The notes beneath the pieces were generated by a model. The model saw nothing but the letters and a program-made list of their open reading frames with translations, had not been told where the DNA came from and did not search any database. From assembly GCA_008632985.1 (NCBI GenBank), contig QPGO01000013.1:124001-188000 (forward strand): a stretch of DNA of 64,000 nt, in the 5' to 3' direction. Positions 20,801 through 64,000 of the stretch are shown in pieces. A program made the position numbers and the translations under genes. The stretch comes from Psammoneis japonica (Eukaryota). Position 1 is the stretch's first letter, and the number at the start of each line of letters is the position of its first letter.

Positions 20801-20899
20801 TCGTGCTTTTGCGCTCTTTTTGCCTGGTGGGTCACCGCCATTGTTCTCTCTTTGTTAAAATGCAGAGTTAAAAAGCCCAGCAGAGCAGAGCAGGGAACA

Positions 20900-29581: not shown

Positions 29582-29674
29582 ACCACCAGTCCATGAGTAA
29601 CCTTTCAACATTTTTCTTTCTTAAAGAAAAGCTAGAGCTACTTGCAAACATATGAAGTGTGCCGCACATCTGAA

Positions 29675-31204
29675 TCATACACCACACAACCATTGGAACC
29701 AACGGAAACAATGACGCAAGTTCAATCGAATTGATTGGCATTCTCTGCTAACGAACCACTTGGAGACGAAAGTCAGAACAGTAGATCCAGTTGGAGAGCA
29801 GCTGGATTGACCGAACGGCGGTAATGTCGGGTCAACAAAAAAGTTTGCAGTCCAGAAATCTGGATCGGAGTGAAGAGCCTGAAGTTGTGCAGGAGCGCTT
29901 CCGCCTTCAATATCTGGAGAGCCGATACGACCTTCAAACAATACCAAGACTTCTTTCTTGTCGTAAAGGAAAAACTGAAAGCCATGATCCGCCAAGAGTA
30001 AGATGGGTACATCGGTGGGACTGACGGGAGCCGACATCGGACTCATCTGTACTGTCCACCCGTCAGAGCTGCCGCAATTGTACCTACTTCATTTACTTCA
30101 ATCATTGTCTTCTGGACAATCAAGTTCAACACTTGACAACTTTCGTCACGGAAAATGCCACAGAATCCACCACCGGCATCTTTCGCAAACGGGGCCAAGA
30201 GACCAATAGTCTGGGGAGCTTTCTTGAGGATACCTTCGTAATGGGACGCGAATCGAAATCGTGGTAGCGCCAAGGCAACACGTTTTGATTGAAGGGACGA
30301 CATCGCTTCCAAGACACTTTTGACGACACGGCATTCAAGCCGTCATCTGTTGGCAGAACCACCACCATGGAGAGGAAGCCTGACGCATGCTTCAATTGAA
30401 CAATCTGATATCCAGGAATGGCGTCATGAGAGTAGGGAAAGTACTCTACCTTGTGCATAAAGTTGAAAGGAATAGGCAGCTCTTCGGTTCTTGAAGGAGA
30501 AGTGAAAACTTGTTTGTAGTCGTAAAGCCTTCCACAAAAGGAAACTCCCAGTTTGCCTTCTTGTAAATCGAATTGAGCGCTAAAAGGACAAACGGTGGAA
30601 AAAGAGGACCATCATCCACTATCGAATCAATCAATCTGCGTGTCGATGCATTGACCCAGTTATTCACAATCTTCCCAGCTTTGGGCGAGGTAAAGTCGGT
30701 TTCTTGAAGGAACTTACCCACTATCGCCTCGTATTCAGGTGCAAGCTGAACCCCAGTGGTCATCCATACACTGTTTGCGATTTCCAAAGTAGGAGCTTGG
30801 CGATAGCACTGGTCGTTCCTACCAGATTTAAAACATCGGAGATAGCACTGGTCGTTCCCACCAGATTTAACGCGTCTCCCATCGCACGCCGTAGTCAGCC
30901 GCGAAACCGTATCTTTCCAATGGAGTGTGAAAGATCCATCATTTGGTGCTAGTGTGTTACAAAGTGACATGGCGCGCACAATTCCTCTCTTGCCAAAGCT
31001 CTTCCACCGGGTTACAAGAGATCGAACATCAAAGATACACCCCAAGAGGAGGAACACTCGTTATCTTTTTCATATAGCTCGTCTGTGAGTTTATCCGCGA
31101 AACGACTGTGCCCCTCCCTTGCAACTTCTACATGGTAGTCTCGCAATGAAGGATAGTACTAATAAAATAACGACGAAAGCTTTCAACTGGCTCTTCGACG
31201 ACAT
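29675..31204 (-). pseudogene. Serpin copy 1, multiply frameshifted, with a 39-bp internal tandem duplication (~30802-30870)
   Basis: Fragments in at least 4 frames homologous to the intact serpin: NNWVNASTRRLI, LALPRF, EVNEVGTIAAA, ADHGFQFFL..VLFEGR. Confidence 0.8.
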
Positions 31205-31624
31205 CGCGTTCTATCCGAATATCTCGATGCGTTTTTTCTCATTTGTGCCAAAAGAAACACGACCCATGCATTGGCGCGTCGCGTTCGCTGGGATGCGGGA
31301 CCAAATTCGCGACATACGACTACGACCAAAAGGACCAGCCTTTGTTCCGCTGACACCAGTGGCTGATGATTAAGTTGAAGACCTCAGTGCCTTCTTTCGC
31401 AGTTTTGGCTGCCGTTTGTGGGTCTTGCCACCCAGTGTACAGCTTTTAAAAGGACGTTTTGATATCCGAACTCAAAATGAGGCCAAAACTGCACTTTGCC
31501 ACGGCTTTGAATTGCAGAGCACACTGGCATCGAGGGGCAGTTTGATTTTTCCTTACTTAAAATCTGTAGCTAGCTTTCAAACCTTTGAAGTGTACAGAGT
31601 ACCGCCGGTTGGCTCCAAGCGTAT

Positions 31625-33184
31625 CTAGATCATCAAACATACAATCAGTGACACCAGCAGGAGCAATTGGTTGCATATTCGGTCGACCTGAAAGGGACTA
31701 TTTGCCGACGAACCGCTTGGAGGCAAGGTTGACTCAACAGATCCACTTGGGGGCAAATTCGAAGCTGCCGACGAACCGCTTGGCGGTAAAGTCAGCTCAA
31801 CAGATCTACTTGGCGGCAAAGTAGGATCCAAAGTCGGACTGACCGAACCGCGTGGTGGTAACATGGGATCAACATTTAGGTATGCAGTCCAGAAATCTGT
31901 ATCTGAGTGAACAGCCAGTAGCTGCGCAGGAGCGCTTCCACTAACAAACTCCGGAGAGCCGACGCGACCTTCAAACAAGACCAAGTCTTCCTTGTTGTCG
32001 TAAAGGAAAAACTGAAAGCCGTGGTCTGCCAAGAACAAGATGGGTACATCAACGGGATCAATGGGAGACGCACTCGTTAGGGATACTCCACCCACTGTTA
32101 CAGCTGCAGCAATTGTACCAACTTCATTTACTTCAATCAATGTCTTCTGAACAATCAAGCTCAACACTTGACAACTTTCGTCACGGAAAATACCACAGAA
32201 ACCACCACCGCCACTTGTCTCAAACGGAGCCATTAGCCCAACTCCCTGCTGGAGAGCTTTCTCGAGGTTCTCCTTATATTTTGACTCGAATCGAAACCGG
32301 GGTAGCGCCAGAGCCACACGTTTTGGTTTGAGGGAGGGCATCGCATCCAAGATACTTTCAGACGACACGGCATCCAAGCCGTCATCGGTAGGCAGCACCA
32401 CCACCATGGAGAGGAAGCCTACCGCATAATTCAATTGAACAATCTGATACCCAGGAATGGCGTCATGAGAATATGGAAAAACCTCTACCTTGTGCATAAA
32501 GTTGACAGGATTTGGTAGCTCTTCGGTTCTTGAAGGAGAAGTGAAAAACTTGTCTGTATTCGTTAAGAGTTCCACAAAAGGAGACTTCCAGTTCGCCTTC
32601 AAGTAGATGGAATTGAGAGCCAAAAGGACAAATGGAGGAAAGAGTGGACCATTATCCACTATCGAATCAATCAATCCGCGTGTTGAAGCATTGACCCAGT
32701 CATTCACTTTTTTCCCAGCGTCAGGTGACGTAAAGTCGGTTTCTTGTAGGAACTCACCAACAATCGCCTCGTATTCTTGAGCAAGTTCATCCCCAATATT
32801 CATCCATACACTGTTGGCGATTTCCAAAATCGGAGCTCGGAGATTACACTGGTCGTTCCCACCAGATCCAACACATCGCCCATCGTATGCCGTCGTCAGT
32901 CGCGAAACTGTATCGTTCCAATGGAGCGCAGAAGATCCATTATTGCAGAGCGCCATAGCTGTGCACAAATCCTCTTGTGTTCTGGATGTGCCACCCGGGT
33001 GTAAGAGATCAAGCATTAAAGATACGCCCCAAGAGGAGGAACACTCGTTATCGTTTTCATAAAGCTCGGCTGTGAGTGAATCCGCGAAACGACTGTGCCC
33101 CTCCCTCGAAACTTCTCCTGCTGTAAATGACTGTCTCGCAAAAATTGATAGTATAAAGATAAATAAGTGGTGCTTCGATGCCAT
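31625..33184 (-). CDS. Serpin (copy 2, intact) with signal peptide, LPPSGS repeats and hydrophobic C-terminus
   Basis: VNDWVNASTRGLI, NSIYLKANW, LALPRF, hinge EVNEVGTIAAAVT, FLADHGFQFFL, VLFEGRV. Confidence 0.93.
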   Translation of the reverse strand: MASKHHLFIFILSIFARQSFTAGEVSREGHSRFADSLTAELYENDNECSSSWGVSLMLDLLHPGGTSRTQEDLCTAMALCNNGSSALHWNDTVSRLTTAYDGRCVGSGGNDQCNLRAPILEIANSVWMNIGDELAQEYEAIVGEFLQETDFTSPDAGKKVNDWVNASTRGLIDSIVDNGPLFPPFVLLALNSIYLKANWKSPFVELLTNTDKFFTSPSRTEELPNPVNFMHKVEVFPYSHDAIPGYQIVQLNYAVGFLSMVVVLPTDDGLDAVSSESILDAMPSLKPKRVALALPRFRFESKYKENLEKALQQGVGLMAPFETSGGGGFCGIFRDESCQVLSLIVQKTLIEVNEVGTIAAAVTVGGVSLTSASPIDPVDVPILFLADHGFQFFLYDNKEDLVLFEGRVGSPEFVSGSAPAQLLAVHSDTDFWTAYLNVDPMLPPRGSVSPTLDPTLPPSRSVELTLPPSGSSAASNLPPSGSVESTLPPSGSSANSPFQVDRICNQLLLLVSLIVCLMI

Positions 33185-33674
33185 GGTGTTCTGCTGTGAT
33201 GTGTGTTATACGTGTTGCTGCGGTCTATTCCCGGTGTTCTCGTTGTGTGTGTCCATGGTCAAAATGATGGTTGTGTCGGGTCGTGAGTCGTGATATGGCA
33301 AAAAATAAGAACCCAGGACGCAGCGGAACCCTAACCCTAACGATGTCTGTTTCCACTGCTTCCGCTCTCGCAATTTCTCGACTACCGGTACACTCTCTCT
33401 AGAGAGTAGAGTTACCGGTAGTAGCTCTCTTGCTAGCTACTTGCTAGAAACTGGCCTTTCTCTAGATGTGGGATTGTTGCTACTTGCTACAGTGTGGTCC
33501 TGATGAGCGCTAAATCCATAGAATCGTCTCACTGCGCGCCTTCTCTGTGCATTTTGAAACTAAGTGTGCTCAACAGTGCCCGCTATCTTTTCTCTTTTGC
33601 GTGCAACAAAGCTAATAGCAAAAGCGATGAAAACTACAGCACCTTCAAGCATGTGTATATCACCGTTCAAGCAC

Positions 33675-35133
33675 CTAGGTCCAAATCATCAACCATGCAA
33701 CACTTGCGACCTGCAGCAACGTAACGCACATTCGGTCGAACTCCAAAGCCTTTGATAAAGAACCACTTGGAGGCAAAGTTGGATCGACCGAACCGCGTGG
33801 TGGTAACGTTGGGTCGACAAAGAAGTTTGCAGTCCAGAAATCTGGATCCGAATGAATAGCCTGCAGCTGCGCAGGAGCGCTTCCCTCTATCATCTCTGGT
33901 GAGCCGACACGACCTTCAAACAAGACCAAGTCTTCATTGTCGTCGTAGAGGAAGAACTGAAAGCCGTGATCTGCCATGAACAACACGGGTACATCAATAG
34001 GAGCCGATTCGACAAGTCCACCTAATGTTACAGCCGCAGCAATTGTACCGACTTCATTCACTTCAATCAATGTCTTCTGAACAATCAAGTCCAACCACTG
34101 ACAGCTTCCGTCCCTGAAAATGCCACAGAATCCACCACCACCACTTGTCTCGAACGGAGCTAAGAGCCCAATAGTCTGAAGAGCTTCCTCCAGGGTCTCC
34201 TTGTACTTGGACTCGAATCGAAATCGCGGCAGCGCCAACGCGACACGTTTTGATTGAAGGGAAGGCATCCCTTCTCGTACACTTGCAGATGTCAAGGCAT
34301 CCAAGCCGTCATCTGTTGGCAGCACCACCACCATGGAGAGGGAACTTGCTGCATACTTCAATTGAACAATCTGATATCCAGGAATGGCGTCATGAGAGTA
34401 GGGAAAGTAATCTACCATATGCATAAAGTTGACAGGATTTGGTAGCTCTTCGGTTCTTGAAGGAGACGTGAAGAACGTGTCTGTATTCGTAAAGCGCTCC
34501 TGAAAAGGAGACTGCCAGTTTGCCTTCAAGTAAATCGAATTGAGCGCTAAAAGGACAAAAGGAGGAAAGAGAGGACCATCATCCACTATCGAATCAATCA
34601 ATCCGCGTGTCGATGCGTTGACCCAGTTATTAACCACCGCCCCAGCGTTGGGTGAAGTAAAGTCTGTTTCTTGAAGGAATTCACCCACTATCGCCTCGTA
34701 TTCAGGGCAAGCTGATCACCTATGGCCATCCAAACGCTGTTTGCAATCTCCAAAGTAGGAGCTTGGCGAAAGCACTTATCGTTTTCGTCAGAATCAACAC
34801 ATCGCCCATCGTACGCGGTAGTCAGTCGCGAAACGGTATCTTTCCAATGGAGTGTAGAAGACCCATTATTTGGTGCCAGGGGGTTACAGAGTGACATGAC
34901 ACTGCACATTTCCTCTCTTGTAATTGCTGTTCCACCGGGGTGCAAGAGATCGAACATTAAAGATACACCCCAAGAAGAGGAACACTCGTTTTCTTTCTCA
35001 TAAAGCTCGTCTGTGAGCGAATCCGCGAAACGACTGTGCCCCTCCCTTGCAACTTCTCCCGTTGCACATGGTATTTTCGCAACAATAATGGATAGTATGA
35101 ATACAAACCCTTCAACTGGTTCTTCGATAACAT
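33675..35133 (-). CDS. Serpin (copy 3) with apparent frameshifts at ~34690 and ~35080 (consensus errors or young pseudogene)
   Basis: ORF pieces collinear with copy 2; hinge EVNEVGTIAAAVT; hydrophobic C-terminus. Confidence 0.8.
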
Positions 35134-35524
35134 GGCGCTGACTTCTTTGCTGATGCTCTCATTGTGATCTCGGCGCAAGACCGGCATCAAAGCGAACACG
35201 GCCACGCGCAAGAACGCGAAGAAGCCGTCGCGCATTTTTTCAATCGAATTATTCAACAGGACCTTGCAGAAACCATTCGACTTCAGGCGAGGGTGTGAAA
35301 GCAGTGTTGTTCCATCGATACAGTGTGTCTGCCACGATACACTCTTAGAGAACCGGTAGAAATGCAAGCACCGTCTCTAGAAAAAAGTTCACGTAGTTTG
35401 CTAGGCCCACAGGACTCTTGGTCTTGAATGGCACGGGGAAACACAGTTGTTCTTCGAAGTGCCTATATGATGGTACACACTTAAGAAAACCAGACAGTTG
35501 TCTCTAGAGAGAGAGAGAGAGAGT

Positions 35525-49154: not shown

Positions 49155-50015
49155 ATGGGCAACAGCTGGAGCATATATTCTTCGGTTCCTTCTTTTATTC
49201 CAATTTTCGCTTCTGGACTTTTACACCATGTTCGATTTTCCAGACAAGAGAAACCGTACCGCATTAAATCGTTTGCAGGAATTGGCGTCGCACTCGGGCT
49301 TTGGCTGTTACCACCGCATTCCTTCACGTGTTGGTGGAAGCACACAACGTGGTTATTATGTCAGTGGACACATGTTGTAACAACAAGTGAAAACAAAGAT
49401 TTGAATTTTCTAATCAATGGCGGCCCACTGGGCAAAGGCTGTGGCAAGCTTTGTGAGGTTATCGCGGGATGCATCTTGTGGAAATTAGTTCATCATAAAC
49501 CTCTTCCTCTTCAATTGGGACCCATGCCAAGTGCTTCCACTGGAGCAATCGTTGCCGTGCTTTCTGTGGCTGTGAATGTAACCTTGTCTCTCTGGTCCCG
49601 ACAACTTAAGTCGAGAGGAGATCATGATGGGGTCAATTCAATGGTCGAATCGTCGCTAGGAAGAAAGCTTTTGGTTAAGGAGCAAATCAAGTTGGCAGTT
49701 TTGGCACTGATTAACGCTGTTTGTGAAGAAGTGTGTTCGAGAGGGTTTTGGTATCATGAATATCAACAACAAGGTGGTCTATCTCCCGTGCGGGCGAATC
49801 TATCACAATCGCTTTGTTTCGGTATATGGCATTACCATGGCATCCCAAGCGGATTGACCGGCGTCGGCCTTACCTTTGTTTATGGACTCATTATGGGTTT
49901 ACTTTGCGAATACGATGGACCGGGCCTTCTGCTTCCGGTGTTGACTCATGCTGTAGCGGACTATCACATCTTTGCTACAATTGCTCGACAACAGCAACAC
50001 ATGCGTACAGAGTAG
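49155..50015 (+). CDS. CPBP/Abi (type II CAAX protease-like) intramembrane metalloprotease
   Basis: EEVCSRG, FGIWH, THAVAD motifs with several TM segments. Confidence 0.85.
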   Translation: MGNSWSIYSSVPSFIPIFASGLLHHVRFSRQEKPYRIKSFAGIGVALGLWLLPPHSFTCWWKHTTWLLCQWTHVVTTSENKDLNFLINGGPLGKGCGKLCEVIAGCILWKLVHHKPLPLQLGPMPSASTGAIVAVLSVAVNVTLSLWSRQLKSRGDHDGVNSMVESSLGRKLLVKEQIKLAVLALINAVCEEVCSRGFWYHEYQQQGGLSPVRANLSQSLCFGIWHYHGIPSGLTGVGLTFVYGLIMGLLCEYDGPGLLLPVLTHAVADYHIFATIARQQQHMRTE

Positions 50016-50522
50016 CTCCAAGCTCTAACACCCCATATAGACTCGTAACCAGAGGATTAAAAAGGATTTAGGCCCATTGAGTGAGTGATACAGAACCATT
50101 TGCATTTAGTGTACTATGTAATATGCCTTATATATTAACCGTCGTGAAAGCGTCCCCGGTGTCACCGACTCTCGCACTTACCAAAGCGCAACGGCACAGT
50201 AAGACTTCCCCATTTCTTTCAGGATCCTCGTATATTCTCGCAAACTTAGGATTCGTTGCAAATTATGGCTTTTTCTGAACCCAGTTTTTAAGTGAGCACC
50301 AGCAGAAACCTTGTTTACATCATACGGACATCATCATGTTTCCTCTTGACGTTCCTCCCATCCTCCGACAGCCTGGCATTCGTCTTCTCCTCTGAGGCAC
50401 TCTCTGAGTTCCTCCTTGCACGATGAAGGACGTCCAATGCCTGAGTAGGAGAGAATATGTTGGAGAGGAGTGAGAGGGCTGAATTCCTGCTACAGCAAGA
50501 AAGATGCATTGAAACTGTTCAC

Positions 50523-51557
50523 CTATAGGCAACTTTTGAAACTTACCGTACGCCCCAAGCCCGGCCTTGCTAGAGGTGGGGGCGCCCTAAGCCCTGCGAC
50601 ACCAATATCTGAAAGCGATATGCGACTAGAGGGCAAGTCAGACACTGGAGCCGAAAGCGCACGTTGGGAGGCGAGGCGAGAAGCGGAGGAAGGGCTCCTT
50701 TCCACAAGAGGATGACCACCGCGACCAACAGCACGTAGTAGCTCTTGTTCGTCAGAATCCAAGAGTGCTGCAGCTCGGCTGGCGTCAGGAGCACGACCAG
50801 CAGCAGATCCCAGACCCAATTGCCGCGCGAGTAAGGCTTGGTTTTGCCGCTGCTGGAGGCGTCCCAGGTCAGCACTTGCAGACGCAAGTGTGGCGGAGGG
50901 AATGGCAGGAATCTGGGCGGCAAGAGTCATGCGAGCGTCCTGGACCTCAAGTAAAGCTCTTAGTCTCTCTTGTTCCCGCAGTGCTGCCAGGGCCGCCGCG
51001 TCTGCTGGAGGAGGCGGGGCTAATAGGGACGCTGCGACTAGCGGGTCGAGTCCAGCAGCAGAAGCAGCAGCCAGAGGGTCTTGGCCAATCGCACCACCAA
51101 GAACGGATGCTGATAGGGCAGGCTGAGGAGATGCCGCAATCAAGGTGGTTAGATGGGAGACCTGAGCCCGTAATTCCTCATTGGCTCGACGGAGACTACG
51201 GTTCGAATCCGAAAGCTGCTTGTTCTTCTCGGTGAGTTCTTCAATCAGTAATCGTTTACGCTTGCGCCTTTCACGAGCGGAAGCTCTGTTCAAAGCGAGA
51301 CGCTTTTCACGTCGGCGTTTTAACGCGAGCTGTTCTTCTTCCGTGAGGGTCTCGTCTTGCTTCTGCTCTTCTTCTTGTTCTTGTTGAAGCACTTCGTCTT
51401 GATTTTCCTCTTGCTCGGACACGCTATCTTCTGCTTCGTGTTCTTTTTCGTGCATCATAAGCTGATCTTCTTTTTCAGGACCTGTGCAAGGTGCCATCGT
51501 GGGCGATTTATCTGAAACAGCAGACTGATTCAAGCTGCTATTGGAACGATCTTCCAT
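50523..51557 (-). CDS. bZIP transcription factor (may continue through a 3' intron near 50546 to ~50315)
   Basis: RREKRLALNRASARERRKRK basic region followed by a Leu heptad zipper; Ala/Leu/Gln-rich C-terminus. Confidence 0.88.
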   Translation of the reverse strand: MEDRSNSSLNQSAVSDKSPTMAPCTGPEKEDQLMMHEKEHEAEDSVSEQEENQDEVLQQEQEEEQKQDETLTEEEQLALKRRREKRLALNRASARERRKRKRLLIEELTEKNKQLSDSNRSLRRANEELRAQVSHLTTLIAASPQPALSASVLGGAIGQDPLAAASAAGLDPLVAASLLAPPPPADAAALAALREQERLRALLEVQDARMTLAAQIPAIPSATLASASADLGRLQQRQNQALLARQLGLGSAAGRAPDASRAAALLDSDEQELLRAVGRGGHPLVERSPSSASRLASQRALSAPVSDLPSSRISLSDIGVAGLRAPPPLARPGLGRTVSFKSCL

Positions 51558-53299
51558 TACGGGTTCGTCGGAAGAGAAGGTATCTTTGTCTGATCAGCGT
51601 CCGCTTCGACCTTTTTCATATGATAAGTCCCCTACAGTTTCTCGTTGATAGGTATGTAAACCGTACACCGATTTCGTCACCACTGCGTGCTGAGCTAGAC
51701 TTACGATACAACGATGCAAGATCACTGATCACTGATGCGTAACACCCCTCAACAAAAAGAGATGATGACAATGAATGGGATGAAACTCGCGTCTCTTGTG
51801 GCGTCGTCAGGAAAGAGGCATAGCGGGTCGAATGAAGTCACTTCACCGCAGTGACGACGCGAAGAAAAAAGGCCTTTCTTTGTAGAACCTGGTACGAATT
51901 CTACGTGGAGCTGCGGAAAATTACGTTCGTGACAACGAAACGGGTGATTGGGTGGACAGCAGAAACCCGGAAAGGTGAACCGTAAGTACGCATAATTGAC
52001 TTGATTAAGTGATAGTTTTACTATCGTTAAAAGTGAATGACCGACTTTGCTTCACTTAAGACACGAATGGATGAACGTTATTTCTCCAGCGGTTCCAACT
52101 GTTCCAACTGTTCCAAACTGTTCCTTTAGCGATTTCACGATTAGATTTCACAAAATGCTTTCTCCGGAAATGTAGCTCGACAAAAGACATATTCTTTATA
52201 CGCGCTCTTCCCGTAAACGTGACACGTACGAATGAGGTGAAATGGACAAATTCGTTTTGAGCGCATTCATCATCTTACAAACCATTCAGTTCAACTTTGA
52301 TCGTCGCGAACCGATGACCACCACCCATCGTACGCATTGAAGTGCGACACTGCGACATCATGCCGCCACAGGGAAGCTTCACGTCACGTCACGCCTCCAC
52401 GCTGCGACACCGGTACTTAAACGCTGTAGAAAGCAAGACGTGGCATTTCGTTTTCGTCAGCATGTCGTCACACGCCACACGTCATCATTGCTTGGTACCT
52501 TCTTTCACTCCCGCCCCACTTCACGGCCGGGCAGCATGGATGCACGCAATTTGGTGACAGCAGCTCACATTCTCACAGCAATTTGAGCACATGCTTCTCA
52601 GGAGACCCAGCTGTCCTGCTGCCCTTCTGGCCTGTTCCAGCCCCAGGCAACCGCAACCCATCAAGCGAGATTTTTTGTGCGCAGCTTTTGGCATCGACAA
52701 TTTTGTCTCTGTCCAGCAGAGCTTGGCTTTTGTGGCAAACATCAAATGCCTTGATGATGTGATGCATTTGTGACAACAACGCATGTCTCCAACAACCAAG
52801 GTGCACATTTCATCACAGGAAGAGCACAGTGTCAGTTGGCGTTTCACGTTGTTTTGCAAACGCGTTGACCAGTGCTGACTCCTGCACGCGTGTGTGCCAC
52901 CCACATCAAAAACACACAATGTCAGCCACAGTGCAGCACACTGCTGTTGCCGCTCTGCCACCCCCTTTTCACCATTGCAGTTGCATGGAACCATCTGCTC
53001 TTTTCATTTGAAAGTTGCGCTGTTGTTGTCACAATGCAGCTGCGGCTCTGTGCAACCTCTTTTGTTGTTGCAGATGGCACCACTTCTTTTTGCACTCTCT
53101 TGTGTGGAGTTCAGCAAGTTGATTTTGTGTGTTGTGGTTCACACAAGACACTGCACATGTGCTTTTTCTGGTTGCCTCCAATGTCTTGTGTTTTGTTTGC
53201 TTTGCAGAGTTTCTGCAAAACTCGCATTTTTGTCCCAACGATTTTCAAATGACAGGCGCCACCATCTTGAACTTGTTTTTGTTTGTTTGCACTGTGACA

Positions 53300-54530
53300 C
53301 TTGCTGTTTGGTGCTGCCAAGCATCTGGAACTGCCTTGGAGGCTGTTTCTGTGCATCTGCATCACTTTTGCGGCACAGCTGATGTTGCCCCCCTCTCTGG
53401 AGTGCATTTGTTGCACAAACAGAAGTTCAAAAGCAGTGCAATCAAAATGGACAAGTCAGCCAAAGCAGCCACCAAGAAACATCTGGGGCTGGCAAATTCT
53501 TCCATTGGCGGCAGTGGCATTGCCCCAAGCAAACAATTCTTCAAGCCAGCCAAAGATGTCTTTTTGCATTGAGAGCTTCATTGACTCGTTGGAGAGGCAC
53601 ATTGCCAACCGGCGAGTTGGCACCATCAACCTCTCCAAACTTTGGTTGATCCCAAGATGTGCCCACAAGGTCTTGTGGAATTGAGCCTCTTGACCATCGA
53701 AGATCATGAGACCCAGAAGACCAGCCCTCTCTCTCTTTCAGGTTCTCATCACAGGAATGGTGTTGATGGGTTCAACATTGCCAAAGCATGAGTCCTGTTC
53801 CATGACACTGTTGTTGGTTGGTTTCATCAAGAATTTGCCAACAAGAATCAACTGCCAACAAAAGCATTTCTCAAGGAGAAGCATGACAACATGTTCATTT
53901 GTTGCGCAAGTGGAAGTGCAGCTTGCTGTTTGGCGCTGTCGAGCATCTGGACCTGCCTTGGAGGCTGCCTCTGTTCATCTGCATCACTTTCATGGCAGCT
54001 GATGTTGGCCCCCTCTCTGGAGTGCATTTAAACCACAAACAGAAGTTTGAAAGCAATGCAATCAAAATGGACAAGTTGGCCAAAGCAGCCAGTGAGAAAT
54101 GTCTGGGGCTGGCAGATTCTTCCGTTTGGTGGCAGTGCCCCTCAAGCAAACATTTCTTCAAGCCAGTTGAAGGTGTTCTTTTGCATTGAGAGTTTCTCGT
54201 TGACTCACTGGGAGCACATTGACCACCGGCAGGTTGCTCCAAAACTTGGTGCCATGAGCCTCTCCAAACTTAAGTTGACCCCAAGACGTGCCCACAAGGT
54301 CTTGTGGAGTTGAGCCTCTTGACCATGGAAGATCACAAGACCCAGAAGACCAGCCCTCTCTTTCATGTTCTTCATCATCACAGGAATGGCGTTGACGGGT
54401 TCAACAGTGCCAAAGCATGAGCCCTGTTCTATGACATTGTTGTCAATTGGTTTTGTCAAGAATTTGACAGCAAGATTTGACCGTGAATGCCCGCAAAAGC
54501 CTTTCTTGAGGAGAAGCGTGACAACATGTT
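53300..54530. repeat. Tandem duplication, ~620-bp unit, of a formerly coding segment
   Basis: CTTGCTGTTTGG..CCCTCTCTGGAGTGCATTT..GCCCACAAGGTCTTGTGGA..GACAACATGTT at ~53300 and ~53922. Confidence 0.9.
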
Positions 54531-55053
54531 GATGTTGGTTGCATTCCATCAGGAACATTGAGAAACACATTGCTGCTGTTTAGATGTGCTAGGTCAAGAA
54601 AGGAGTTGGTGTGCTTGTTGATTGCATCTGAGTGAACTGCTCTGGGTGATGAGAGAGGTGACAAGAGAAAGACCATCTCACACCACAGCATTTGTTTTTT
54701 TCTGTCAGATGTTGCAAGTTCACTTCCCCAATGGCCCAAGAAAAAAGGGCTGTTTCAAGGAGCCGCTGGCTCACCTTGCTGATTGGTGCAAGGCAGCTTG
54801 CCAACTGCAATGGCGCTTGTTTTGCAGAAGAATGCATCGCCATCATTGCTTGGCTCATGCCAAGATGGCAAAGGAAATTCTTGAGGGTGATGAGAATGAA
54901 ATGCAAGAGGCACATGAGGGCACCAAAAGCTTGCAACTGTGAGATGGAAACAAAGAGGAGGAGGATCAAGGGCAAGAGGCATGGATGTCTCAGCTGAGGA
55001 AGAGGAGGAAGACACAGAAGAGGAAGAGCAGGAGCAGGGGGGGGGGGGGGCGT

Positions 55054-55575
55054 GAAGAATGCAGAAGACTTGGCACTTGGAGACATGAAGGCAGAGAAGG
55101 AGAGGGCAGGAGACAGGCATTGCAAATGCTGGATGGAGCTCATGAAAGCCACAACTGGAGTGAAAAATGATGACGATCTCATTGGCCTTTGCGGCTTCAA
55201 GCCAAAATCAGGAGCGCCAGGAGCACCTGTGTTTCATTGGTTCTTGAGCAAAGGCAAGTGCCACCAACAAGAAAGCGCGATGACAGAGCAAACGTGTGAC
55301 AAAGTTCATGGAGCAGGGGAAGCTGCTGAAGAATGCAGAAGACTTGGCACTTGGAGACATGAAGGCAGAGAAGGAGAGGGCAGGAGACAGGAGACAGGCA
55401 TTGCAAGTGCCAGATGGAGCTCATGAAAGCCACAACTGGAGTGAAAAAGATGACAATCTCATTGGCCTTTGCAGCTTCAAGCCAAAACCAGGAGCACCAG
55501 GAGCACCTGTGTTTCATTGGCTCTTGAGCAAAGACAAGTGCCACCAACAAGAAAGCGTGATGACAGAGCAAATGT
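55054..55575. repeat. Tandem duplication, ~275-bp unit
   Basis: GAAGAATGCAGAAGACTTGGCACTTGGAGACATGAAGGC...CCACCAACAAGAAAGCG at 55054 and 55328. Confidence 0.9.
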
Positions 55576-56159
55576 GCAACAATGCTTGAGTCATGTTGCA
55601 GGTTAAAAAATTTGTTTTGATTGACCCCAGTTCATGAAGCAGGAGAGAAGCTGCTGCAGCCAGGCAATTCTGCAGGAGCTGTTCCTCACTTGTTTGGCTG
55701 CATTGCTGAAGAGAATGAGGGCATTGTGTTGTGTGAAGAATGGTTTGTCCAAAGGGCCAATGCATTGAATGGCCATCCCATGGAAACATGTGTGGGCCTC
55801 ATCAAATGTGCTGAACACAAACCCAACATTGCCTGGAAATTAAATCAAAGATGATGCATCAACAAGATTGAGCACAAGGTGCATGTGATTTGCAGCAGTG
55901 CACCGCAGATTGCAAGACTCAAGAGATTGAGTCAGGAGGTGATGCAAAAGCTTCCACATCTTGTGCGGGGTGCTGATTTTGTTGGTTGCACCCAGCAGGG
56001 CAACCGTCCAATGTGTGTGACACAAGATTGAGCTGAGTGCAATTTCCAGGTGTGGTTTCCAGAAGTTTGGAAAGATTTGAAAGATTGGAAGCCAGGGGAG
56101 GGTTTCTGCATCTTGCTGGAAGGAAACGTGTTGATGCCATTGGATGCCAACTTGCTGAC

Positions 56160-56620
56160 AAGCAGCCTGCCTGTGAAATTCTTGCAAGGACACAACAACA
56201 CTTGCTTGTTTTGTCCCTGACCTGTGTTCTTCATTGTGCTTTGTGCTGGTGACCTGGAAATGAGAGATTGCATTCCATCTCATGTTGAAACATCTGCCAA
56301 CCATGCCAACACCAATGACAATTGCATGTTGTTTGAAAAGCACATGCTGAGCCACTGTTTGAAGGGAAAGTTCCCATCAACAAACTCAAACATGAAGTTT
56401 TGCTGCAGTTTGGATCAAACCATTTTCTTGGAAGCAGGTGGTGAATTTGATGTGTGACAACCTGCAATGATGGCTGCACAACTTTGTGCCATCTGGTGAA
56501 CAACCACTGCATTGCCTTGCACCATGGATCTTTGACTCCAATCACAGTTTTGCATTGCCAGCAAAGGAGGACATCAAGTGCTTGAAACGGTGTCTTGGAA
56601 ACAAGGAACATGATGTGAAA
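56160..56620 (+). pseudogene. Decayed ORF with a papain/C39-like peptidase pattern
   Basis: VKFLQGHNNTCL (~56173-56208), NHCIAL (~56502), WIFDSN (~56525): Q..C / H / D order typical of papain-fold proteases; family uncertain. Confidence 0.4.
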
Positions 56621-56999
56621 CATGTGGCAAAAAAGGTCTGAAAACAAGTGGCCATGGTGTGCCAGTTTGAACTTCCAAGGGTGGTGGCACAGCAGGCAAA
56701 TGGCAAAAGGAAAGATCTTGTGTTGGGTGGTTCATCTGGTTGCATGATGCAAAGTGACAATCACAGTGTTTGTTCATTTTCCCACTGCCATTTCATTCCT
56801 CAGACTCATCACTTTCACTGTCCCCTCCTGCACTCTCCTCCTCCTCCTTGCAGTCCACTGCTGTGCTGTTCTCCTCCTCATCATTGTCACTCTCTTCCTC
56901 CCAACTCATCAGCTTCGCTGTTGTCGTCCTCCTCCAAACATTCCTCAAAATGATTCATTGACTCATGCTGGTGAATCGCACCAAGAATGGCTTTGTGCT

Positions 57000-59480
57000 C
57001 ATCCTCACTCAAATTGCGTGGAATGAGAAGTGAAGCCTCATTCCTGTTGCATGTCCTTGGCAGCTGCAGAGAGGCTGATGGTTCATTCAGCTCGGTGTTT
57101 GCAGCTGCACTTTGCTTGAGCAACACTCTTGTCTGACATTCCTCAGTGTCAGCAGGAGTGCACCATCCTCTGGCCCATGGAGCACAGTTTGCAAGCATTC
57201 CCTTGCAAACCCACTCACTGGCCTCAACAGGTGTGGGTGGATCAAACTTGTTCCACACCACATCTTCGCATGCTTTGTGGGGCAGTTCATCCCATTGCAG
57301 CAGATGGAAGCTCTCATCAGATTCACAAGACAAAATGTGGCACAGCTGTTCATGACAATTTCCTTTGCCATTTCCTCAGTCAATTTGTCCAACACAGGTT
57401 TGTGGGCCAACTGCATCTTGTCAGCATCACTCTGAGTTGTTGGAAGCACCTGACAAACTTGCCAATCATTCAGTCCCTCAAATTGGGCCACAGTTTGCAA
57501 GCTTGGTTGCCACCTGCATGTCGAGGCCACTCAGCTGGCTTGACATTGTTCACCCAAGGTCAATTCAGCTGATCCAGGCAGCCTTCACAAGGGCAAGGAA
57601 TTGGTTGAATGGCAACCCAAACAATGGGAAAAAGAGAATCAAATCAAAAATGGCACATGGCGCCAATGCCACAATGGTGCATGCAAACTTGCACCAATCC
57701 AGTCAACTTGACTTCAGCTGAAGAGCCAAGAACTTCATCAGCTTCTTGCAGAAAATGTGCCCTTTCTTTCAACTTTTGAAGGGACTCCCTCAAAGCATGT
57801 TTCCTGTCACCAACTTTGCCACACTGGCACATTTTTTCATTTTGAGAAATTTGAAACATTCCTGAGTGCAGCTGTGCTCTGCTGCAACATTGTTGTCATC
57901 CATGGCCAGAGCATCAGCTCCAATTTTGCTGTCCTCATCATTGACTCCTGCAACAGTTGCAGACTGCATTGCTCAACACACAAGTGATTCAACACAGGCT
58001 CCAATTCCATCGACCTCTCCTTTGTCATGTCCAGGTCAGGGGACATCTTTGGAAGTGAGATCATCGAAGGCGGTCTGATCACCAGTGCATTTGGGGACTT
58101 TCCCAGTGCGGTTTGCACACAAAAGAAAACATGCAGGATCTGTCCAGAGGTCCCAAATGCCCAACTGCACTGACTGACAGACTGTTTTGGTGCAAATTCT
58201 GTGCAACTTTCTTTGACAGTCTCACTTCCAAAGACGTCCCCCAAGGTGCTCCAATGGCGCGGTCCAATGCAACGTTGCATTTGTGGGCAAACACTGACAA
58301 CAAGTGCAGTGCCGAAGGGCATCAATGCTGTTTGGCACAACCATTGCTCTGTGCAATCCCAAATTGCAAGCCACACCTGACACAGTCCATGGTTCTTTAA
58401 CTGTGCGACAAAGTTTTCCAAGTGAGTGTGGGTGGTGGTGGCGGCATCTTGCTCAGAAGAGTCAAAGAGATGTGCCTGATGTGTTTTTTCAGCCTCATTG
58501 TCAACCATCACATTGCAAACTCTTCTTTCAATGGACAATGTTTTGTTGTTGCCACAATGATCCCCATGAATTTGGTTGTTAAACTTGGCTGCTGGAATGC
58601 CAGAGCAGTCATGAAATGTGAAAATGCTGTTGGGCATTGACTCAAATGCTTTGCAACACATTTCCATGCAATGATTTTTCCCAAGAATGGCCACCTGGGG
58701 AAGGTGGCAATGCAGCTTCTTTGCACTTGGAATGCAGCGTTCTTTTGCAAAAAGTCCAACTGTTTTGTGGAACCTTGTCAACAAGATCTTTCATTTGACC
58801 TTTGCATCCTTGTTCCCACCTGGATCTGCCTCACAAACAGGACATGCTTCCATGAACATGTCATGCTTGAGGCACCTTTTTGCAGTCAAATGCCATTGAA
58901 ACAAAACTTGGAGCACACTGGAACTTTCACTCTGTTCCAACAATGGAGTTGGGTGGGATGCCATGCTTGCATTCACCCAAAACATGTTTCCAATGAGGGT
59001 GGTCATGACCATTGACATTGCCACAAATGATGGTTGCAGCTGCATCTCAAGCTTCAGGATGAAGGTGATTGGAGTTGGAGCCAAACGTTTCCTCTTGATG
59101 ATGGCACATTGTCCTCTCCAATTTGCGTGCAGTGCTGTCATGGTTCTCTTGTTCACTTTTTTCCCCTTCATCTTCAACAAGAATCATGTCTCTTGAGTTG
59201 GGATGCTGTGCCATGTCTGGGATGATTTGACAACCAGCGCACATCAGCTTTGCTGATCTCAGGGGAAACTTTGTGAGGGTGCTGATGGGGCTGTGCACTG
59301 AAGACCACATGACATTGCCTTTGATCACAATCAAAGCCACTCTGGCCGTCTTTCCCTGCCTCGTCATTTGGTGACAAACAGCCCCTGGATTCAGGCTGCT
59401 GGGTGCATTGGCGCAGTCCTTGGACAACAACCCAGGCTCATCAGCAGGTTTTTCCAGAGAACTGGAGACTCCAGCCGCCA
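57000..59480 (-). mobile_element. Fossil DDE/D-type transposase gene (possibly Sola-like), interrupted by a MITE; ends approximate
   Basis: FHDCS..AAKFNNQIHGDHCG..TLSIE, DSSEQDAATT, SNGCAKQH*C..ALHLLS...LDRAIGAP|GHDKGEVDGIGA, IPCPCEGC, FEGLNDW. Confidence 0.65.
58037..58243. mobile_element. 207-bp MITE with ~22-bp TIRs and 4-bp TSD AGGT
   Basis: GGGGACATCTTTGGAAGTGAGA ... TCTCACTTCCAAAGACGTCCCC; AGGT at 58033-58036 and 58244-58247; removing it restores GAP-GHxKG. Confidence 0.88.
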
Positions 59481-59894
59481 CTGAATGGACAAAAAGATTG
59501 TCGTCAAAGCAGCACTGACCATTGCTTTTGTCATTGGCATGTGGCTGCCTGCATTTTGCCCAGCTGCTGGGTTGTTTGCAAGGCAGCAGACTTTGCTTTT
59601 GGCAACGTCAAGTCACAAGTCTCAACATGAGCCAACTCAGGAAAATGCAAAGTGCGCACAAAGGCAGTGGCTTGTTGCTCTTGAATGGCAGTGCAAGACA
59701 AAACTCTTTGTCTTGTTTCAGCCGCTGCATGACAAAGTGCTTGTTGGGGATTTTCGTGGGTTGCATCAAAGGCGCGAGGGGATCAACAATGGGGCACTCT
59801 CAAAATTGAAGGAGCTTGTTGTGCTGAGTGCAAAAATGGGCCAGCAATGGGTTGCGCACCTCTGTTGACACCTGCTGGAGCTGGGGCAGGCCTT

Positions 59895-60110
59895 CTGTTG
59901 GTCATGTGGCCACAATTGACCCAGGGCAGGACAAAAAGCCAAGCGTGCTTTGTGGCCAGACAGCCACCAAGAGATGTTCAGTGTGGCTGGCTCCTTTTGC
60001 GCATCGAGCCGCACACTCTGTTGGTCGTGTGGCTGCATTGACCCAAGGCAGGATGAGTGGTCAAGTGTGCTTTGTGGCCAGGTGGTTGCCAAGAGATTTT
60101 CAGGGCAGCT
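59895..60110. repeat. Degenerate tandem duplication (~125-bp period)
   Basis: CTGTTGGTC.TGTGGC..ATTGACCCA.GGCAGGA..GTGCTTTGTGGCCAG..CCAAGAGAT occurs twice. Confidence 0.75.
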
Positions 60111-60185
60111 TGCTCCTCTTGCACATCAAGCTGCACACAGTGGCAAGCAGCTGCTTTTTCACAAAGAACAACAAATTCTCTTGTG

Positions 60186-60189
60186 CACG

Positions 60190-60231
<42 letters not shown>

Positions 60232-60333
60232 ACCACACACACCACACACACCCCCCACACCACACACCACACCACACACCACCCCCCCCACCACACACCC
60301 ACACCACACACACCACCACACCACACCACACAC
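60186..60333 (+). repeat. (CA)n microsatellite grading into CACCA repeats
   Basis: Read directly from the sequence. Confidence 0.95.
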
Positions 60334-60556
60334 TGTTTGCTCCAACAAGAGCCAACAAGAGCTTGCAGAAGATGCCATCTTGTCTGCAAAAAAGGAGAGA
60401 TGTGTGGAGTGCATGGGCAGACATGCGCATCACCACTCTGATGCAGCACAGCCCTGGTTCAATCCCGTGCCTTCTTTGCAGAAGCTTGGGCTTTCAAACA
60501 CTGCCTTTTTGACAGAGGCCTTGGATGCAGACATGAGCAAGTGCCAGCGCCATGAT

Positions 60557-60816
60557 GGCCTGTTCCAGCTCCAGGTGCTCCGTGCGGGCTCGATTCCCAT
60601 CATTTGGAAATTTGTGAATTTGGCGCAATTGACTTTTTCCAAATCCGTTTTTTGCCAAATCGAAGGGCAAGTGTGCACTTCACATGCATTTTCGGGTGTG
60701 CACTCACCTTTCGATTTTCGAAACGATCAAAATTGAAGGAGTCAATTGCACCAAACTGCGCAGAAAATCGGCCTCTTGCGTGATGAAAAGCAGAGCACCT
60801 GGAGCTGGAACAGGCC
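60557..60816. mobile_element. 260-bp MITE with perfect 24-bp TIRs and 4-bp TSD TGAT
   Basis: GGCCTGTTCCAGCTCCAGGTGCTC / GAGCACCTGGAGCTGGAACAGGCC; TGAT at 60553-60556 and 60817-60820; inner inverted pair TTTGGCGCAATTGACT/AGTCAATTGCACCAAA. Confidence 0.88.
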
Positions 60817-63800
60817 TGATGATGAGACACCCTCCAGCCAGCACACGCAAGCCAGCACATGCAAGAAAAGACAGTTGCGTGGTTTTTGCCACATGTGGTC
60901 TCTGAAATTTGACCAAACTTTTGCCACAAAAAGTGCGGCAGCAAGGGTGACCCATCATTGCCCAAGAGGGTCTTGTGGCCCTTCTTCTCAGATCAGCTCA
61001 GGCATCCTCAGCAGGAGGACAGCGCTGGTCTGTCCCTGTGCAGGCACCAAACAGCACTGCTTGGGCCAGATTCTGCCCACAGAGATGGAACATCAGCTTG
61101 AAATTCCACCAAGGCAGATGCTGTCAACACAGCACCCTCCCAAGATGACCAAAACTCTGCCAAGTGTGGCTGCAATGCCAAACTCCACTCAAATCATGCA
61201 CGCAGCAAGTTGGCACATTTCTGCACAAAAACGCCACACCCTGCATTCCTGTGACTGCATTTTGATGCCAACCAGAAACAAATTTCATGACCACATGTGG
61301 TCACCAGGTGCAGCTGCTTTTGTCACCCTGTTTTTTTTGTGCTTTTGCAACAACCACATGTCCACACAACATGATGACTGACAACAACGAGAATTTTGTC
61401 AACGACCTTGGATCTGACAAGTCTTTTGCAAGCCTGTCATTGCACTTGCGTTGATTGCTTTGTTGATTGATGTGCGCGGCACCAGCGTGGTTGTGCTTTG
61501 TGCAACATTGCCACCACTCTGACACTCCATTTTCCTTCTTGCCCTTTCAGACCTCCAGAAGAGTGGCGGTGTTGACACCAAAGCAGATTGTGAGCAGGAG
61601 ATCCATCAAAATGTTGGCAAGGTGCACAGAGCATGAGCAGAAGATCCATCAAAATGCTGGCAAGTTTGACTGTTTTGTGAGTTTTTGGGTGACACACGCG
61701 CTGTTTGCAAGTGGTTTTCTCAACAATGTTTTTGTTTTTGTGTCTGTCATTGGTGCGGCCACTGGCCTGGCAGCCTTTTGGGAAGGCGGACTGTGATGCT
61801 GTGTCTGCCATTTCATTTGTCCCAGCAAATGAGGTTGGCTCAGTGTCTGTTTGTCGCCAATTCTCCAGAGGATGCTGCTGTGCTCTGTGTGCTTGCAGTC
61901 TGTGCAAGTTCATCCCCAGCTGGCTTGCTGGTGTCATGACTGTGGCAAATCTTCACGTGCAATGCATGGCATGTGTGGTCAACCAGCCACAATGGGAGAA
62001 CAGGGAAAGCAAATTGACCTGATTTTAAACAAGCAGATCTGTTTCTGCTTGGCACCACAGTGCGCCATCTTTCCACTGCGTGGGCATCTTGGGCACGGCA
62101 ATTGTGCCAAGCTGCGCAGATGCACTCACACAAAGTGTCAAACTGGCAAGCCAATTTTGCCAAAAGGGAATCCTGCAAAGCTTCCTGTGCCACTCATTGC
62201 ACTTGCCCTGGCTGCTGTGGTGGCTGTGGTTTGCCTGGAAGTTCTCAACAAACTTCAAACTCATGATGCAAAACAGGCACCTGTGCTTGCACATTTTTGC
62301 AAACCAGATGATTCACTCCAAAGAGCAAGAACAAAACGCAAAACAGAAGGAAGAGTCATCATTGTGGCGTGCAGCAGGATCTGAATGGGTTCAATGTGCC
62401 AGGGGGTTCTCACACCCTTTTGGTTTTTTTGTGCTGTCACACTCAGCTGTGTCCCCACCCATCTTTTCTGGGACTTGTGTTGGAGTTCCAAGGCTTGCCA
62501 ACAGATGCACAGCAGTTGGCATTGCTGACCCCAACACAACCTTGCCACACCCTCCTTCAGCAGACCTTCAACAGCTTCTTTGACAGCAAGGCACCCTCCA
62601 GAGATTGTTTCTTCACCCTCATCCAGCCAGCTCATTTGCTGCAATCTGCCAAGGAACACCACAAGGCACACCTTTGGGTTCCTGTTGACCTCCTGGTCTG
62701 TTTCTTTTGACTCCTGTGTTGACTTCCCAGCCCTCACATCTGTGGATTCCCTTGACTTTCCAGCCCCCGTTCTGTGGATTCATCTTGACTTCTCAGCCCT
62801 CAAATGACTCTGCTCTTTTGAGCATTGTGCCACAATGACCAGCACACATTCTGTCTCACCATCTCCCAACTCACTGAATGGCTTGCAAACACATTGGCTT
62901 GTGTTGCTGGCTGTTGTCACCATGTCAACCAGGCACAGAAGATGGGAAGCATGCACAAAACCCGCGGCTCAACCCAAGGTTGCACAGCACCGCTGCTCCC
63001 CACAACTGCCCTTTCATTTGGTTGTCACTTGCAAAATTGTGCCTCAAGTGTTCCTTTTGCATGTTTCCAGGCTGGCCATTGTTGGTTTTCCATGGACACA
63101 CTGCCGCCATGCCCTCTCCATTTGTGCCTTGTCAAATGGCATGCTGGAGCACAGATCTTGGCACTGGGGTGCCACAAACAAATTTGCGCTGCCTCCCTTG
63201 GCTTCTTTTTCAAGCAAGGAAACTGGCTCCTGGACTTTTTAGTTTGTGCCTGTTCAACTGTGGCCTCATTTGCACACCAGGGCAAATTTCCAGAAACTCT
63301 CACGAAAACTGCTCTTCAGCAAAAGCACCTGGCACCTCAGATGCATCTCACCTGAAACCCCCAGAACAGCTCCAATGTCTGTCTCTTCTCTTTGTGTCTC
63401 TGAAGGAGACAGGGGTGCTCTGAGGAAACATTCTGGCAATGCTGGCATGCTGGAGGTGATGCCATGGTGGAGGCAGTTTGTGCAGGAAATTTGCCAAAAA
63501 ACTCCACACTTTCAAGAGGTGCTGTGGTGGAGCCAAACGTCACTCAATGACACAAAGTGCAAAATTGTGTGTTTTCAGGTGTGAAGATTTTGTCATGAGG
63601 TCATTTGGGGCTCATGGAGCTGCAACCAAAATGTTTTGTCTTTTTTCAAAATTCTTTTCAGGTGATGCTTGGCACGACTTGAAGACTGGTGCCACCAATT
63701 TTTTGTCAACTCAAACTTCTTTCCTCCCAACAACAACTGGCACTTCTCCATGGGCTCTGGTCACAGCTCATCAAAAGAAGCAAGAAGACTGCTCAACTGC

Positions 63801-64000
63801 AAGCAGAGAGAATGAAAGCAGGGCTCAGCTTGTCCCTGATGATGATGCCAGGGAGGAACTGGGTGCCACCGCTGTTGTTTTGAGGAGGGAATTCCTTCTG
63901 CAGACTCAGGCAAGAGCACCAGCATCCACAACCACCTCTTGGCTGTTTTGCAAAAGTGTGACATTGATGAAAATGAAAAGCTTGACAAGATGGAACAGGC

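Follow-up and report, generated by a model that had tools for sequence, protein, structure and literature searches.

RESULTS

Three TA-depleted islands in a diatom contig

The DNA analyzed here, a 64,000-nucleotide stretch of the diatom Psammoneis japonica (GenBank assembly GCA_008632985.1, contig QPGO01000013.1, positions 124,001 to 188,000 of the forward strand; called the window below, with position 1 as its first letter), carries ordinary genes and, apart from these, three islands in which the dinucleotide TA is depleted, in one of them almost to zero, and in which CG is scarce and TG and CA are in excess. The islands were delimited by the share of TG and CA among all pyrimidine-purine (YR) steps, which is 0.6 in normal DNA and at least 0.9 in the block at 52498-64000. 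That block had been singled out in an initial annotation of this DNA; the depletion is larger than stated there, as two further islands, A and C, are present.

52498 to 64000, no strand: island B, nearly TA-free, CpG-poor, TG/CA-rich, without a recognizable gene; reaches the end of the window
about 11274 to 17950, no strand: island A, between a 219-codon open reading frame (ORF) without a Pfam family (10282-10941, minus strand) and a major facilitator superfamily (MFS) transporter gene
about 20400 to 21800, no strand: island C, short and partial, upstream of the FtsZ gene; plus strand purine-rich

Island B contains 11 TA in 11,503 bases, against 754.5 expected from base composition (observed/expected ratio, O/E, of 0.01) and about 440 expected at the TA O/E of 0.59 that holds for the normal DNA of the window overall. 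Its CG O/E is 0.22, and TG and CA reach 1.78 and 1.84 (1.81 for TG+CA), in line with the abundance of both that had been noted initially. The last normal TA lies at 52496 and the next at 54029, which confirms the claim that TA is absent from 52498 to 54028; the roughly ten TA reported for the following 10 kb were recounted as 11, all of them between 54029 and the window end. TA-free runs of 3446, 2557, 1533, 1214, and 1014 bases, the longest five in the window, all fall in island B, and all 11 of the 1-kb windows across 53001-64000 show a TA O/E of 0.00-0.07 and a TG+CA O/E of 1.64-1.97. Island A holds 26 TA where 442.7 are expected (O/E 0.06) and has a CG O/E of 0.30; TG and CA make up at least 0.8 of its YR steps across 11401-18000, and six consecutive 1-kb windows (12001-18000) have a TA O/E of 0.03-0.13 and a TG+CA O/E of 1.68-1.85. 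Island C, with 10 TA (O/E 0.13; none from 21077 to 21797), has a CG O/E of 0.39 and a TG+CA O/E of 1.47.

Normal 1-kb windows of the same stretch have a TA O/E of 0.40-0.99, and outside the islands TA recurs at a mean spacing of 25.6 bases with a maximum gap of 264. Of 80 loci on metagenome contigs around diatom-type FtsZ genes, 3 could be classed as diatom-like, with 72-81% identity and a combined length of 14.5 kb; their longest TA-free gaps measured 84-110 bases.

The borders of the islands are sharp. Within a few bases, TA density falls from its normal level to none at 52496/52498, at 11273, and at about 17946-17994, and the island flanks have a TA O/E of 0.51-0.52; the earlier statements that the flanks are normal and that the depletion is confined to discrete DNA thus hold, the islands being gene-free and sharp-edged. 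Loss of CpG is more gradual at the edges and reaches less far than loss of TA: the edge of island B at 52498-52900 has no TA at a CG O/E of 0.55, and a similar zone borders island A.

11274 to 11600, no strand: edge zone of island A, 0 TA against 13.5 expected, CG O/E 0.71 (nearly normal)

A TA-less zone in which CG is close to normal shows that the two losses can be told apart, and of the two the loss of TA is the more complete.

Dinucleotide balance

The share of YR steps is 0.24 both in island DNA and in normal DNA; removal of TA by transversions would have lowered it. Adding the lost TA and the lost CG (about 0.04 each) to the normal frequency of TG+CA (0.142-0.145) gives the 0.226 of island B; TpA frequencies are 0.0010 in island B and 0.0044 in island A. 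When 98.5% of TA and 77% of CG were changed into TG or CA in a simulation on the normal DNA of the window, the O/E came to 1.79 for CA and 1.81 for TG, compared with 1.84 and 1.78 observed in island B. The GC content of island DNA is the same as or slightly higher than that of normal DNA (0.488 versus 0.471). The order of TG and CA within the islands is random, as it is in normal DNA (z=-0.9 for island B and -1.7 for island A in a runs test); sites were therefore resolved independently on both strands, which argues against long single-strand editing tracts. The initial annotation had proposed conversion of A to G at TpA on either strand: the footprint fits transitions to TG and CA, whereas the substitutions themselves found no support.

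Sequence context of surviving TA and CpG

The TA present in the islands are strongly biased in their neighbors. The class Y-TA-R (Y, pyrimidine; R, purine) accounts for 32 of 46, compared with 17.8% of 1777 normal TA (p=1.7e-14), and TTAA for 20 of 46, compared with 4.9% of normal TA; R-TA-Y, the commonest class in normal DNA (29.6%), is represented once among the 46. Had these TA been created anew by uniform transitions from island TG and CA, 23% Y-TA-R would be predicted, which is rejected (p=2.6e-11), and origin by TCA>TTA only would predict 51% (p=0.008); among survivors with a 5' T, moreover, the 3' base is a purine in 27 of 33, where a share of 0.51 is expected (p=2.5e-4). Since the bias is not explained by new TA, removal of TA must depend on context. 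Relative to tetranucleotide frequencies in normal DNA, which were taken as ancestral, TA survival is 0.44 for TTAA, 0.16 for CTAA/TTAG, 0.06 for CTAG, and 0.00-0.03 for the other classes, and a two-strand fit on the same basis gives a cumulative removal of 2.98 for C, 2.62 for T, 1.33 for G, and 0.45 for A as the base that follows the adenine on its 3' side. The order of preference of TA erasure is apparently T-A-C and T-A-T about equally, then T-A-G, and far behind these T-A-A. The products behind the YR excess agree with this preference (R-YR-R is 72-80% CA and Y-YR-Y 72-80% TG), although products derived from CpG are biased in the same way and the two contributions are inseparable here.

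CpG survival follows an order of its own: GCGC (0.79), CCGC (0.52), ACGC (0.44), ACGT (0.33), CCGG (0.22), and the classes containing TCG (0.09-0.16). Fitted by the base 5' of the C, removal is 1.41 for T, 0.77 for C, 0.70 for A, and 0.11 for G; within islands A and B (11998-17945 and 52498-64000) T-C-G is the most eroded and G-C-G is almost spared. This order differs from the human signature of 5-methylcytosine (5mC) decay and resembles the T-C-G hypermutation known from basidiomycete fungi.

Tandem duplications inside and outside the islands

The presence of duplications in the block at 52498-64000, which had also been noted initially, was borne out by three local tandem duplications in island B; two more lie in island A. 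A set of duplicated genes outside the islands served for comparison.

53300 to 54533, plus strand: tandem duplication in island B, copies at 53300-53898 and 53922-54533
55053 to 55582, plus strand: younger tandem duplication in island B, 280-base unit, 1.9 copies
59894 to 60138, plus strand: tandem duplication in island B, 122-base unit
29664 to 35139: serpin gene in three tandem copies, each about 2 kb long, 60-84% identical (Pfam Serpin, E down to 7.7e-56)

When in-island copies are compared in purine/pyrimidine coding, their identity is far higher than at the level of bases (92% versus 81% for the duplication at 53300-54533, with 12 TG:CA double differences, and 94% versus 78% for that at 59894-60138), which indicates that transitions dominate their divergence; in the younger duplication at 55053-55582, which is 92% identical, 13 of 13 substitutions are transitions. 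Both TG and CA outcomes are present within one short duplicate. TG:CA double differences number 23 in 1176 aligned bases of in-island duplicates and 4 in 3335 aligned bases of the serpin copies. However, the 3 CG:CG and 25 CG:TG/CA pairs of the in-island duplicates imply that CpG decay alone would yield about 26 TG:CA pairs, and the duplications thus arose in DNA from which TA had already gone.

These observations bear on whether the same TpA chemistry might be triggered by duplication, as in repeat-induced point mutation (RIP) of fungi, an idea contained in the earlier description of the erasure as repeat-targeted. The five in-island duplications would fit such a trigger, and many diatoms encode DNMT4, a protein of unknown function related to the fungal RIP factor RID, according to PMC9998398. 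Against it, islands A and B have no detectable homology with each other in a self-comparison, even in purine/pyrimidine coding; between the in-island duplicates, no divergence derived from TA is seen over and above CpG decay; and the serpin copies have normal TA and CG content, with 63 TA:TA pairs kept, so that gene duplicates as such are not edited. The preprint on the chlorarachniophyte Bigelowiella natans, in which TpA hypermutation of integrated viral DNA has been described, likewise presents the affected nucleocytoplasmic large DNA virus (NCLDV) region as single copy (bioRxiv 10.64898/2026.01.13.699255). We consider a duplication trigger quite unlikely, and the term repeat-targeted did not find support.

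Content of the islands

Island ORFs with 70 codons or more numbered 169, and a Pfam scan covered 134 of them (105 of 111 in island B and the longer 29 of 58 in island A). None of the 134 contained a transposon or viral domain, so that the transposon fossils of the initial annotation were not confirmed, and 22 long island ORFs gave no Pfam family. The only significant match among the scanned ORFs was Aminotran_3; the remaining matches listed had E values of 0.0083-0.44. A tblastn search of the island DNA with the 98 normal ORFs of the window returned nothing below E=0.007. Two items can be placed on the map.

11494 to 11961, minus strand: decayed acetylornithine/ornithine aminotransferase fragment, C-terminal third (Pfam, PDB, tblastn)
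57837 to 58790, minus strand: 317-codon open frame with 0 Tyr, 18 Cys, and 15 His; probably not a gene

The aminotransferase fragment is the only recognizable coding relic in the islands. It is matched by Aminotran_3 in the ORF at 11629-11961 (minus strand; E=1.6e-8), its best PDB match is the acetylornithine aminotransferase 8ht2_A (E=9e-7), and tblastn places it at 11961-11494; 76 representative proteins match at E of at most 0.001, the best with 53% identity. The fragment is a relic: at a position that is Arg in 95% of 21 aligned relatives it carries an in-frame TGA, Gly codons that are otherwise invariant and follow a C now read AGC or AGA (Gly>Ser/Arg at C|GGN junctions), and a CCG Pro codon has become CTG, each of these a CpG-to-TpG/CpA change. 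Its region holds 0 TA in 723 bases where 32 are expected. The relic is GC-rich (0.57-0.59). Its best matches are unlabeled metagenome proteins; 4 of 9 that were looked up are named as aminotransferases of this type, some of them as acetylornithine/N-succinyldiaminopimelate aminotransferase, and no labeled diatom protein is among the best matches. By this resemblance the relic may be bacterial-type DNA of nonhost origin that entered the diatom genome. Compared with longer proteins, the aminotransferase ORF had no homologue, and a scan of genome contigs with the pseudogene found no relative. Use of the relic for a codon-level test of Tyr>Cys/His changes was dropped, as its relatives are too distant (36-53% identity).

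The Tyr-free, Cys/His-rich reading frame described initially is real, as the composition of the frame at 57837-58790 shows; however, absence of TA removes TAA and TAG stops together with all Tyr codons, so that long Tyr-free ORFs follow mechanically. This frame had no Pfam family, no homologue, and no PDB match. An Atlas lead from it to integrase clusters scored 0.83, which is at chance level; a second island ORF gave no Atlas lead. Purine/pyrimidine 3-base periodicity, which survives transitions, was used as a further trace of coding. The islands have a median of 0.96, compared with 3.93 for windows of coding DNA and 1.56 for those lying outside long ORFs, and most island DNA is without trace of recent coding. 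Values above 6 are limited to the aminotransferase relic, part of island C, and 57751-58200 (7.9), the last of these a weak hint of former coding. In island C, the segment at 21151-21750 (periodicity 6.8-7.5) is purine-rich on the plus strand, has low-complexity Pro/Leu/Ser-rich ORFs without a family, and could be either a decayed gene or a simple repeat. Island B also contains, at 60182-60230, a 49-base alternating pyrimidine-purine tract of mixed TG, CA, and CG that leads into a CA-type microsatellite. Alternating tracts of this kind were considered as relics of (TA)n and proved uninformative.

The content of the islands speaks to the possibility that they were always poor in TA, either as foreign or satellite DNA with native avoidance of TA or through selection against it. 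The direction of change is inferred only, and the in-island duplications are younger than the TA-free state, both of which would allow this. Yet the trait is common to three islands without mutual homology, a fragment of an ordinary aminotransferase gene is free of TA as well, and the TTAA-biased survivors resemble the specificity of an enzyme; in addition, the low periodicity median leaves no coding function for selection to protect. A native lack of TA is therefore, in our judgment, very unlikely.

A sequencing or assembly artifact, such as systematic miscalling of modified bases in silent chromatin, has to be weighed as well, as the stretch may stem from a long-read assembly. Of the exact 31-letter words sampled from 50001-60000, a share of 0.75 is present in the contigs of one sequencing run (X1); island makes up three quarters of this segment, so that at least two thirds of the island words are found verbatim, although the run is possibly the source sample and its matches therefore give no independent support. 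Strand-specific miscalls would give reads disagreeing with the mixed TG/CA consensus, the 11 TA called inside island B indicate that TA is readable there, and the relic shows decay of the CGA>TGA and CGG>TGG type, as in real mutation. The same footprint has been reported for B. natans from Illumina NovaSeq data, according to the text of that preprint (bioRxiv 10.64898/2026.01.13.699255). An artifact is, on this evidence, very improbable.

Surrounding genes

The genes between the islands encode an AAA ATPase, PspA/IM30, a phosphoesterase, the MFS transporter, FtsZ, an amino-acid kinase, the three tandem serpins, leucine-rich repeat and WD40 proteins, an Rce1-like protease, and a bZIP factor. 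The FtsZ ORF (22402-23799) matches proteins with 68-82% identity, and all organism-named sources among the 120 matches listed are diatoms; no identical protein is on record. The left flank of island B (52100-52497) is unusually CpG-rich (CG O/E 1.58). Within it, 52200-52497 contains repeated ACGTCA/CACGTC-like words and adjoins the bZIP transcription factor gene (50523-51593, minus strand); it could be a promoter with bZIP-type sites. Rfam gave 0 matches in the window.

DISCUSSION

A probable localized process that erases TpA

We consider it probable that the islands represent a saturated case of hypermutation of the Bigelowiella type at TpA, combined with ordinary-looking decay of CpG; this interpretation draws on analogy with the B. 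natans system. The islands would be silent DNA, probably foreign or junk, which might be marked by its chromatin or by its origin and then be hit repeatedly by a deaminase. A localized process of this kind would convert nearly every TpA to TpG or CpA in place, on either strand and site by site. The likeliest chemistry would be deamination of the adenine of 5'-T-A-3' to hypoxanthine, with G fixed by replication, and a polynucleotide adenine deaminase of the ADAT2/TadA kind is a candidate enzyme. As TA is self-complementary, either strand can be hit, and every TA would end as TG or CA; if T-A-A is a poor substrate, as we propose, TTAA would last longest. CpG would be removed from this DNA by a second, slower process that is most rapid at T-C-G and least so at G-C-G. 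The footprint, its borders, its context bias, and its distinctness from CpG loss are seen in the sequence itself, whereas the direction of change at TA, the chemistry, the enzyme, the marking, and the foreign origin of the DNA belong to the proposed reading.

If equilibrium is assumed and TA is replenished only by background transitions from TG and CA, TA removal would proceed at about 226 times the background transition rate in island B and about 50 times in island A. The same calculation would put CpG removal at about 15-18 times background, the usual order for methylated CpG. These rates are relevant to a thymine-directed route, in which T>C changes arise from oxidized or modified T at TpA or from biased repair of G:T mispairs in silent chromatin. 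Because TA is self-complementary, A>G and T>C on opposite strands leave the same footprint, and a precedent exists in Escherichia coli, where very-short-patch repair is held to deplete CTAG by turning TA into CA or TG. By hand arithmetic, however, a repair bias acting on ordinary replication errors cannot give the implied 50- to 200-fold rise in rate; the listed papers that mention both 5-hydroxymethyluracil and diatoms (12 of 15) concern, by their titles and the starts of their abstracts, dinoflagellates; and the B. natans authors, as their preprint reads, infer and favor adenine deamination (bioRxiv 10.64898/2026.01.13.699255). We give a thymine-directed route only a slender chance.

Several points weigh against the interpretation of the islands as products of TpA hypermutation. 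No individual TA>TG or TA>CA change was observed, only the footprint, and since the 23 TG:CA differences between in-island duplicates are close to the 26 predicted by CpG decay, they give no evidence for conversion of TA after duplication. Some of the composition was not reproduced by the simulation: GpC is 1.27-1.39 in the islands (1.08 simulated), GA/TC is 0.85-0.92 (1.09 simulated), and ApT is 0.71-0.79 (0.88 simulated), which could reflect either an unusual ancestral composition or a weaker A:T>G:C pressure outside TpA. The context fits assume that the ancestors of the islands had the tetranucleotide make-up of the normal, mostly coding DNA of the window. The islands contain no viral or transposon domain, and the foreign-DNA part of the interpretation depends on one aminotransferase fragment. 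The Bigelowiella precedent is a single preprint on a different branch of the supergroup, and the word CpG is absent from its main text.

A bolder version would have a single 5'-T-preferring deaminase of the ADAT2 type, an old defense common to the Stramenopila-Alveolata-Rhizaria (SAR) supergroup, act on both T-A-Y and T-C-G and thereby write both signatures; we regard this as rather unlikely. If a SAR-wide defense that edits TpA in silent or invading DNA did exist, in diatoms as well as chlorarachniophytes, many algal genomes would carry TA-free islands as marks of ancient invasions.

Natural motif-defined editing of A:T pairs in DNA was first reported in 2026, for one chlorarachniophyte. A saturated footprint in a diatom would, if correct, mean that TpA editing is no curiosity of a single lineage, and it offers a sharper motif, with T-A-Y edited and T-A-A spared. 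TA-free islands could serve as a simple marker in genome scans for old invasions that are beyond the reach of similarity searches, and a natural dinucleotide-specific DNA adenine deaminase would be of interest to base-editing research. Transformation and CRISPR tools are available for diatoms and could help in the hunt for the enzyme.

Comparison with known systems

Decay of methylated CpG yields TpG and CpA but cannot remove TpA. It is present in the islands (CG O/E 0.22-0.39) and is seen directly in the relic and the duplicates; TA loss, in contrast, is about tenfold more complete and continues beyond the zone poor in CpG. Decay of methylated CpG as the sole cause was ruled out by the absence of TA at 11274-11600, where CG O/E is 0.71. 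Fungal RIP, as known from ascomycetes, changes C to T at CpA and creates TpA. The process proposed for the islands would share with it a localized, context-specific transition hypermutation of nongenic or invading DNA that leaves a dinucleotide footprint with sharp edges; unlike RIP products, the islands have lost TpA and gained CpA and TpG 1.8-fold, and their GC content is not lowered. The initial assessment that neither 5mC decay nor fungal RIP explains the TA loss, and that CpG decay runs alongside it, is upheld. That assessment had also considered a modified adenine, for which we found no support: N6-methyladenine (6mA) at TpA was dropped as a cause, as the model diatom Phaeodactylum tricornutum carries only 5mC and 6mA at ApT is of limited mutagenic potential, according to preprint 10.1101/2024.10.28.620566.

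Hyperediting of double-stranded RNA by ADAR, fixed through retrotransposition, resembles the proposed process in its A>G change and 5' U preference, but its changes would come in coordinated runs on a single strand and would include ApA, whereas TG and CA alternate at random in the islands. RNA editing of the ADAR type was ruled out, the runs tests being those of normal DNA and AA not being depleted (O/E 1.24-1.44); ADAR is, moreover, a metazoan family. Deaminases of the ADAT2/TadA kind edit A34 of tRNA, target an adenine that follows T or U, and include members that act on both A and C. The natural site of bacterial TadA, U-A-C-G, matches the T-A-Y preference deduced here, and by analogy such an enzyme might be linked to the diatom islands. 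DNA editing has been reported for BjADAT2 of amphioxus and TbADAT2 of Trypanosoma, as cited in the B. natans preprint (bioRxiv 10.64898/2026.01.13.699255).

The nearest precedent is that preprint itself (bioRxiv 10.64898/2026.01.13.699255), which overtakes the earlier statement that no such system had been described. In its account, integrated viral DNA of B. natans undergoes A>G/T>C hypermutation at TpA only. In mutation-accumulation lines, 231 of 302 nuclear single-nucleotide mutations fell in two viral regions, an NCLDV region of about 186 kb and a virophage region of about 25 kb; 230 of the 231 were A>G or T>C, all of them on TpA according to the authors, and the rate in the viral regions was about 6e-7 per site per generation compared with 3.5e-10, with hypermutation in some of the lines only (10.64898/2026.01.13.699255). 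Its authors propose an ADAT2-like DNA adenine deaminase (10.64898/2026.01.13.699255). The main text of the preprint uses neither the word diatom nor the word stramenopile, and a literature search for TpA erasure in diatoms found no description; it appears to be undescribed so far.

The diatom islands agree with the B. natans regions in a footprint that fits exchange of TpA for TpG or CpA on either strand, the TpA frequency in B. natans being down to about 0.002, and in being discrete blocks beyond which the nuclear DNA is unaffected. Eleven consecutive 1-kb windows of island B and six of island A lie beyond both window thresholds used in the preprint; island C falls short of the second (TG+CA 1.47). 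The two cases differ in the host, a chlorarachniophyte (Rhizaria) there and a diatom (Stramenopila) here, and in extent, with near-complete erasure in the diatom (O/E 0.01) versus 0.45 reported for the NCLDV region. The diatom islands add CpG decay, are known from their footprint alone, and carry no recognizable viral gene. Their preference for T-A-Y over T-A-A is not described in the Results and Discussion of the preprint (bioRxiv 10.64898/2026.01.13.699255). The diatom islands are far closer to saturation than the B. natans case, to which the extended motif inferred here and the distinct CpG component are testable additions.

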